From Pseudomonas phage phi9_PA9: a stretch of DNA of 64,000 nt. Shown here piece by piece: positions 48,509 through 48,992 of the stretch. The notes below the pieces were generated by a model. It worked only from the letters and a program-made list of their open reading frames with translations, was not told where the DNA came from and made no database searches. Each line of letters begins with the position of its first letter. The first letter of the stretch is position 1. The position numbers and the translations under genes were made by a program. The DNA lies in the sequence record PQ093904.1. One strand, written 5' to 3'.

Positions 48509-48992
48509 CGGACAAGTAACTAACCAAATAAGGTAAAAACAATGGAACAAAACGGAGTAGTGTCCGTCTTTGATCCGGCTTCATTTAAAATTGAATATGA
48601 AGTGCTTGATAAATACCTTATTAAGTTAATCAAGTCTAGTTCCCCCAGTGAGTAATCATTGGGATGAGTTCTCTCTAATTGCTGGGATATCCTGTTAAAC
48701 TAATCTACCACTGCGAGTCGAAAGACAAAGCCAAGGTTTGAAAAAGATTAGGTAGGGCCAATCAGCAGCCAAGCTCCGTAACATTCCATTTAGGAATAGG
48801 AGAAGGTTCAACGACTATTACGGTATCAGGTGCACCGGTCCTAGAAATAGGATGTAGGGTCAAGTGACTCGAAATGGGAGACACCCCACTCCGAAAGGAA
48901 GGGTGAAGATATAGTCTGGTCTGCATGGTAACATGCAGCAGGTGGTAATTATACTACCGGGTATGGATTAACGACCCATACTGAACATAACG
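48509..48992 (+). ncRNA. group I self-splicing intron (no homing endonuclease gene)
   Basis: Canonical core elements: P TAATTGCTGGGA (48676-48687), Q AATCAGCAGC (48760-48769), R GTTCAACGACTAT (48806-48818) and S AAGATATAGTC (48906-48916). The 5' splice site follows a T (48508). G 48992 precedes exon 2 as omega-G. Only a 37-aa internal ORF (48542-48655). Boundaries are good to a few nt. Confidence 0.8.

Follow-up and report, generated by a model that had tools for sequence, protein, structure and literature searches.

The td (thymidylate synthase) intron of T4-like phages is the textbook phage IA2 group I intron. For the phikzviruses, Ceyssens et al. (2014) is reportedly the source for introns in gp55 and gp180. 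The word 'intron' is absent from Yakunina et al. (2015), and the phiKZ genome paper of 2002, as quoted in PMC10914365, predicted the group I intron endonucleases gp56, gp72 and gp179. A passage of PMC11512511 lists gp55 among the intron-containing polymerase genes. ONT-cappable-seq of phiKZ yielded no spliced reads at three predicted introns (PMC10914365), and orf72 and orf179 have been found to be deletable with Cas13a selection (PMC12676376).

We analyzed a window of 64,000 nucleotides from Pseudomonas phage phi9_PA9 (PQ093904.1), in which a sequence-only reading had proposed a group I intron splitting an RNA polymerase beta-prime gene at its catalytic motif. The locus very probably holds a self-splicing group I intron of phage IA2 type in gp55, inserted between the Asn and Ala codons of NADFDGD and corresponding to the phiKZ element minus its endonuclease. 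The element itself is already known, being the phiKZ gp55/gp56/gp56.1 intron in a frequent endonuclease-less allele; the annotation of an intron is absent from all phikzvirus records checked. The features of the locus are summarized in Table 1.

Table 1. Features of the interrupted gp55 homologue and its intron, with positions in the window.
Feature	Position	Strand	Description and basis
Exon 1, gp55 homologue	47264..48508	+	415 codons, ends ...LKAPN; ORF list; matches PDB 7OGP_A residues 21-435
Proposed P1, 5' strand	48506..48513	+	Exon AAU (ends U48508) and intron CGGAC; pair list, best duplex -4.5 kcal/mol
Group I intron, IA2-like	48509..48992	+	484 nt, without functional homing endonuclease gene; RF00028, protein junction, orthologues
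Stump of gp56 HNH endonuclease ORF	48542..48655	+	37 aa; BLASTP against phiKZ gp56; no Pfam domain
Deletion junction	48597..48601	+	5 bases replace 896 bp of phiKZ (L001 2834-3729); blastn
Proposed internal guide sequence, P1 3' strand, GUCUAGUU	48634..48641	+	G48639 pairs with U48508
Ribozyme body	48644..48916	+	P2 (48644-48663), P3, P4, P5-P5c, P6-P6b, P7, P7.1, P7.1a, P7.2, P8; Rfam alignment
P element, TAATTGCTGGGA	48676-48687	+	String search, single occurrence in first intron
Q element, AATCAGCAGC	48760-48769	+	String search, single occurrence in first intron
R element, GTTCAACGACTAT	48806-48818	+	String search, single occurrence in first intron
S element, AAGATATAGTC	48906-48916	+	String search, single occurrence in first intron
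3' hairpins	48921..48981	+	P9 (48921-48938, GUAA loop), P9.1 (48941-48958), P9.2 (48961-48981); local folds
Terminal (omega) G, 3' splice site	48992	+	Conserved in 10/10 aligned relatives
Exon 2, gp55 homologue	48993..49211	+	72 codons and stop; starts ADFDGDQLNLTLMP (Mg-binding aspartates)

The interrupted gene and its predicted spliced product

The interrupted gene is the homologue of PHIKZ055 (gp55), the beta-prime N-terminal subunit of the non-virion RNA polymerase, and its second exon corresponds to the 3' part annotated as PHIKZ056.1 in phiKZ. The window is from a phage of the genus Phikzvirus; the region around the intron shares 96-98% DNA identity with Phikzvirus gp55 genes (vB_PaeM_kmuB is best with 97.9%; phiKZ has 95.8%), and no record in the phage collection reaches at least 99% identity over the locus, the sole such entry being a 34-nt match. 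Upstream, a 626-aa ORF (44990-46870) is the counterpart of PHIKZ054, annotated as 'nuclear shell protein'.

The unspliced ORF (47264-48523) ends in ...KAPNRTSN*, exactly where the sequence-only reading had placed its end, and its read-through product has a calculated mass of 47.9 kDa. The frame resumes at 48993 with GCG GAT TTT GAC GGC GAT, and joining 48508 to 48993 gives ...LKAPN|ADFDGDQ... within a protein of 487 aa and 55.65 kDa (calculated), in which N415 is the last residue of exon 1, the aspartate motif is numbered 417-DFDGD-421 and the junction peptide is ...APNADFDGDQLNLTLMPDVYLTK. Splicing at these bases restores NADFDGD, as had been claimed: the alignment with phiKZ gp55 that had been suggested as a check runs end to end with PDB 7OGP chain A, covering residues 1-486 of the spliced product with an identical junction, KAPN|ADFDGD. 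The molecule name of this chain is 'PHIKZ055 | DNA-directed RNA polymerase, PHIKZ056.1' and it reads LKAPNADFDGDQLN across the junction; because the structure comes from recombinant constructs, the fused chain is not itself evidence of splicing in vivo. The cryo-EM paper numbers the gp55 motif 417-DFDGD-421 (PMC8287921), which is the numbering of the spliced product and therefore counts for the restored protein. Moreover, native non-virion polymerase from infected cells contains a gp55 of 56 kDa (PMC4666361); set against the calculated 55.65 kDa of the spliced and 47.9 kDa of the unspliced product, this value counts, indirectly, for splicing in phiKZ.

The last exon base, U48508, and the last intron base, G48992, are both conserved in all aligned relatives, and the intron tail ...AACAUAACG also ends the window's second intron. 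The limits 48509-48992, which agree with those first proposed, are fixed by the protein junction of the solved phiKZ gp55, the uninterrupted orthologues, the U at position -1 and the G at the 3' end. The junction region is continuous in PhiPA3 gene 054, PA1C, Psa21, Viktualia, RTH11 and many more distant jumbo phages; in the case of PhiPA3, the gene reads CCTAAC|GCGGATTTTGACGGCGAT, i.e. CCTAAC GCG GAT TTT GAC GGC GAT, with no interruption. Codon differences between the exons and those of relatives are almost all synonymous, which we read as selection on the exons: compared with phiKZ, only synonymous changes occur in the final 35 codons of exon 1, and exon 2 has 10 synonymous differences together with 2 non-synonymous ones that lie at its extreme C-terminus.

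The sequence-only reading had named as its counter-case an orthologous gene naturally split at this point into two separately translated proteins. In the exon-2 frame after the TAA at 48969-48971, no ATG, GTG or TTG occurs before the TTG at 49014, which lies past DFDGD, so that separate translation cannot deliver the catalytic loop and the counter-case does not describe this gene. Directly past the exon-2 stop, a G+C-rich inverted repeat, cccctaccacttatgtagtagggg (49221-49255, plus strand), is followed by the T-rich ctttatttcc and, from its sequence, resembles an intrinsic terminator. Exon 2 is separated from the gp57 homologue by a 62-aa ORF (MSNIREIIRRNPECL...; 49352-49540, plus strand) without a phiKZ counterpart, PHIKZ056.1 and PHIKZ057 being there 48 nt apart; Wadjak1 and kmuB carry a 189-nt CDS at its position.

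Ribozyme structure, P1 and the second intron

An Rfam scan of the whole window returned two matches over the gathering score, both to RF00028 (Intron_gpI) and both over the full model. The match in gp55 spans 48618-48938 (model positions 1-253), and its score of 80.4 bits (E 8e-19), compared with a gathering score of 50, lies far beyond chance. The covariance-model search that had been recommended thus bears out the assignment to group I, as do the uninterrupted orthologues and the covariation of the structure, and the P, Q, R and S elements are present where they had been read from the letters.

The helices P1-P9.2 were assigned guided by the Rfam alignment, and 90/90 of the proposed pairs are standard. 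Covariation was counted over 83 pairs, leaving out P1, P9 and P9.1, in 10 aligned phikzvirus versions, 9 of them distinct; in this sample of closely related sequences, and with a pair list derived from the window sequence itself, the paired fraction of cells is 98.9%, and both sides have changed in 10 pairs. None of 500 shuffles matched either the paired fraction or the two-sided changes, and slid controls were 30-45% paired. Two-sided changes include those in P6/P6a/P6b of the 9-Ps-8B type, a U-A to C-G change in P7.1 and a G-C to A-U change in P7.2, and P9.2 shows two compensatory pairs among relatives. The P9 and P9.1 sequences of the window type and the phiKZ type are wholly different, were out of register in MAFFT and were folded separately; the hairpin layout is the same, with GNRA loops on P9, and when the window, phiKZ and kmuB versions are folded locally, each retains three 3' hairpins despite the sequence change. 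Since all pairs are standard and compensatory changes occur, the ribozyme looks intact, and the suggestion of a degenerate intron made in the sequence-only reading is not upheld.

Between P7 and P3', three hairpins (48821-48870) consist entirely of standard pairs, two of them with compensatory changes, and the 3' 140 nt of the intron share ~72% identity with the td intron region in T4-like phages. These two features point to the phage IA2 type and, by resemblance, provisionally place the intron in that subgroup. On the minus strand, three short ORFs of 37, 38 and 54 aa lie within the intron (48520-48926); they correspond to the 'hypothetical protein' CDSs placed over the ribozyme in the KEN19, KEN49, KEN51 and 9-Ps-8B records, and are most likely over-calls.

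As a candidate P1, AAU|CGGAC, across the 5' splice site, would pair with GUCUAGUU, with a U48508-G48639 wobble. This short, weak helix comprises three exon pairs, a C-A mismatch and four intron pairs, with a predicted -4.5 kcal/mol, and it lacks covariation support because it is invariant among relatives. The candidate guide sequence lies just 5' of P2, a position that it shares with paralogous introns, in each of which a guide sequence precedes the core: in the RNP|TL-site intron of kmuB, GAAAU pairs with GUUUC just 5' of P2, and in the DFDGD|Q-site intron of phiLBG22, where P2 was not seen, GGAGAU pairs with GUCUCC. The same guide-sequence rule, applied to the window's second intron, predicts the gp71-73 junction of PDB 7OGP_C. 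C48509 is an extra base, absent from 9/9 relatives, and would stand opposite A48638, modeled as a bulged A in the other versions. Two further placements were rejected, namely the P1 of the Rfam alignment (48622-48646), which includes non-standard pairs and is 110 nt away from the splice site, and GUCCG (48563-48567) as the partner of CGGAC, where U48508 would face U. An alternative partner for the exon end CCUAAU is AUUGGG (48658-48663), the P2 3' strand; six exon bases are then paired, but the wobble falls at U48505, and as a splice there cannot restore NADFDGD, this pairing is a possible competitor only.

The second RF00028 match (62845-63071, 81.1 bits) belongs to a 313-nt group I intron at 62813-63125 (plus strand), which splits a homologue of gp71-73, a polymerase beta-like subunit, in its HGGKGV motif. 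It contains the same P, Q, R and S strings as the first intron (62899-63049) and also shares the ...GAACAUAACG tail with it. Its P1 pairs GGU|AAUU (62810-62816) with AAUUGCC (62858-62864), with a wobble at U62812. A 5' splice site after 62815 (HGGN|KGV) was rejected on account of this wobble and of PDB 7OGP chain C (gp71-73), which reads DFHGG-KGVICKV (HGG|KGV), and the site is now placed after 62812. The match in KEN49 measures 588 bp compared with a 901-bp query and is 313 bp shorter, which is consistent with no 313-nt intron being present there. The second intron is likewise without its endonuclease (gp72 in phiKZ); what is left is an AGGAGG resembling a Shine-Dalgarno sequence and a short ORF that begins with the ATG at 62845. 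At this site the endonuclease-less form is the majority (~37/43 records), and gp72 is present in four phages and five records: phiKZ (two records), FBPa36, OMKO1 and fMGyn-Pae01.

The endonuclease stump and its occurrence among phikzviruses

In phiKZ, gp56 is a protein of 334 aa with NUMOD4, HNH_3 and three NUMOD1 repeats (Pfam). The 37-aa ORF seen in the sequence-only reading exists as described, but it is not an independent small gene: in it, residues 1-18 of phiKZ gp56 run on in frame into residues 318-334. No Pfam domain was found in it, and its kmuB homologue is annotated as 'truncated HNH homing endonuclease'. Of the functional homing endonuclease that characterizes a mobile intron, only this domain-less stump is found, in agreement with the initial description of the intron as lacking one. 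The alignment between the window and phiKZ falls into two blocks, 47264-48596 and 48602-49199 (blastn), and the deletion junction, TTTAAAATT|GAATATGAAGT, is common to kmuB and phi30-1. The Wadjak1 deletion is out of frame and has another junction, which indicates an independent loss of the endonuclease. The stump is located in the loop of P1; its start is 34 nt past the 5' splice site and its stop codon falls in the P2 loop. The overlap of its last codons with the P1 3' strand and P2 explains why the 3' end of the endonuclease ORF was retained.

At the gp55 site, ~12 GenBank phikzvirus records from 11 phages lack the 0.9-kb endonuclease gene, a count taken from span lengths with three phages verified by direct alignment; these phages are Wadjak 1, sp. 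30-1, KEN19, kmuB, PhiPizzaParty, Bobae, PA_ZH1, AttikonH10, PaZh_1, Churi and SL2 (two records). The gene is present at this site in ~22 records. PA7-type phages have an empty N|ADFDGD site and a different intron 18 nt downstream, and PhiPA3-group phages are without any intron at the gp55 site. All 44 Pseudomonas records that the gp55 query matched have one or more introns close to the catalytic loop. Absence of the endonuclease is a common polymorphism among sequenced phikzviruses, which is what one expects if homing endonuclease genes go through their usual cycle of gain and loss.

Introns of related phages are inserted at three sites around the active site of gp55, namely RNP|TL (48399/48400 in window coordinates), N|ADFDGD and DFDGD|Q, represented by the loci of KEN49 (L010, PP456877; 404-2638), kmuB (L003; 2637-2942), PA7 (L007) and phiLBG22 (L005). 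In KEN49, RF00028 matches occur at all three, so that two group I introns flank a micro-exon, the 18 nt encoding ADFDGD (L010 2233-2250). The alignment of window 48621-48998 with its relatives shows that phi30-1 combines the window-type endonuclease deletion with phiKZ-type P9/P9.1, and a 14-nt duplication in P9.1 is present in kmuB, Wadjak1 and KEN51 and absent from the window; this mosaic pattern points to recombination inside the intron.

Interpretation and relation to known introns

Splicing in this phage would begin with one pre-mRNA transcribed from the gene, in which the ribozyme would fold into P1-P9.2. Free guanosine would attack after U48508, held in P1 against G48639, and the 3' OH of exon 1 would then attack after the terminal G48992. 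The ligated mRNA would encode the 487-aa, 55.7-kDa beta-prime N-terminal subunit with 417-DFDGD-421; without splicing, translation would stop at 48523 and yield a product lacking the Mg-binding aspartates. An 896-bp deletion in the P1 loop took out the HNH endonuclease gene and left the 37-codon stump, and with this gene deleted the intron can no longer home by itself. Its persistence may reflect that only exact excision keeps the essential gene intact, and spread would still be possible by recombination or through an endonuclease supplied by a co-infecting relative. Against this account stand the missing spliced reads in phiKZ, the P1 of only -4.5 kcal/mol, the competing pairing of CCUAAU and the C48509 seen solely in the window.

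The transcriptome result also bears on whether the ribozyme is dead, in which case the locus would encode two separate polypeptides (a 419-aa fragment and an exon-2 fragment) or be a pseudogene. One long-read study without spliced reads (PMC10914365) is in line with this, GenBank lists PHIKZ055 and PHIKZ056.1 as separate CDSs, as it does for Wadjak1, kmuB and others, and phiKZ polymerases are already assembled from split beta and beta-prime fragments. We nevertheless consider a dead ribozyme hardly credible: any exon-2 product started separately at TTG 49014 lacks ADFDGD, and CDSs of the PHIKZ056.1 type, like that of Wadjak1 (L002 1970-2152), start well inside exon 2; the core is fully paired with compensatory changes, the orthologues are continuous across the site, and native gp55 is 56 kDa, not 48 kDa (PMC4666361). 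The no-splicing transcriptome result (PMC10914365) stands against the fused proteins of the native enzyme (PMC4666361).

A functional ribozyme could also have been retained for a purpose, either as a splicing timer or brake on the non-virion polymerase or as protection of the gp55 target site against the gp56-type endonucleases of co-infecting phikzviruses. The intron near the catalytic loop in every one of the 44 Pseudomonas records and the persistence of many endonuclease-less copies would suit such a role, and transcription and translation are separated in nucleus-forming phages (PMC12908238), so that splicing could be an independent control point. In addition, the PhiPA3 intron endonuclease is a weapon between such phages (PMC11620839), and Gp55 appears as two bands on Western blots of infected cells (PMC10612078). 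Retention for function is very unlikely all the same, as nothing resembling a sensor or switch is seen in the sequence, the stump ORF is not maintained (in Wadjak1 it is broken out of frame at another junction), the site is unoccupied in PA7-type phages and the PhiPA3 group has no intron here. Persistence is more simply explained by the difficulty of an exact deletion within an essential motif, and site protection is a passive consequence of any intron that calls for no special adaptation. The narrower idea, that the endonuclease-less intron is kept as a splicing control step of the non-virion polymerase and that the two Gp55 bands are the spliced and unspliced products, is very unlikely; in a nucleus-forming phage the pre-mRNA is made in a ribosome-free compartment, and if the idea were true, the appearance of the catalytic subunit could be timed by ribozyme folding or by GTP/Mg levels. 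The earlier suggestion of a domesticated intron controlling polymerase production accordingly draws no support from the sequence or from the comparisons, in which the endonuclease-less state is common.

With the locus read as the phiKZ intron in its endonuclease-less form, the practical value lies in the annotation of phikzvirus records: as long as the exons are listed as separate genes and the intron is unmarked, DFDGD seems to be part of a small 'hypothetical protein'. The locus also serves as an example of the homing-element life cycle, with three adjacent sites round one catalytic loop, an endonuclease lost independently more than once and recombination occurring inside the intron. A long-read transcriptome without spliced phiKZ reads faces mature proteins that require splicing, and the short endonuclease-less alleles are convenient substrates for addressing this discrepancy.

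Among the known systems, the td intron of T4-like phages belongs to the same Rfam family, with the ~72% identity over the 3' 140 nt covering P8/P7'/P9, and shares with the window intron the extra hairpins between P7 and P3', a trait of subgroup IA; the host gene differs. The td ORF of T4 lies in a P6 extension, whereas the endonuclease ORF of the present intron sat in the P1 loop, and I-TevI, the endonuclease of T4 td, is a GIY-YIG enzyme, as opposed to HNH for gp56. PhiPA3, a Pseudomonas jumbo phage that likewise forms a nucleus, has in gp210 a group I intron that carries an HNH endonuclease and interrupts a polymerase subunit at catalytic residues (Birkholz et al. 2024, PMC11620839). Unlike gp55, gp210 encodes the beta subunit of the virion RNA polymerase, and its endonuclease is active and acts in phage competition, whereas the window intron is without one; the gp55 homologue of PhiPA3 (gene 054) has no intron.

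The PHIKZ055/PHIKZ056.1 intron of phiKZ (NC_004629 47923-50761) interrupts the same host gene at the same insertion point (AAT|...ACG|GCN, i.e. N|ADFDGD), with a ribozyme part 93.9% identical to that of the window and the same exon product as PDB 7OGP_A. In comparison, the window intron lacks 896 bp corresponding to gp56 codons 19-317, which include all of NUMOD4, HNH_3 and NUMOD1, begins with an additional C, and carries different P9 and P9.1 hairpins. In phage Koomba boorn-mokiny kep-wari Wadjak 1 (OP310983), the intron is endonuclease-less as well, by way of a different, out-of-frame deletion. The deletion junction and the 37-aa stump of kmuB (MW057919) and sp. 30-1 (LC727696) are identical to those of the window; kmuB, whose ribozyme is 99.2% identical, differs by a second, 306-nt intron at RNP|TL (window 48399/48400) and by the 14-nt duplication in P9.1.
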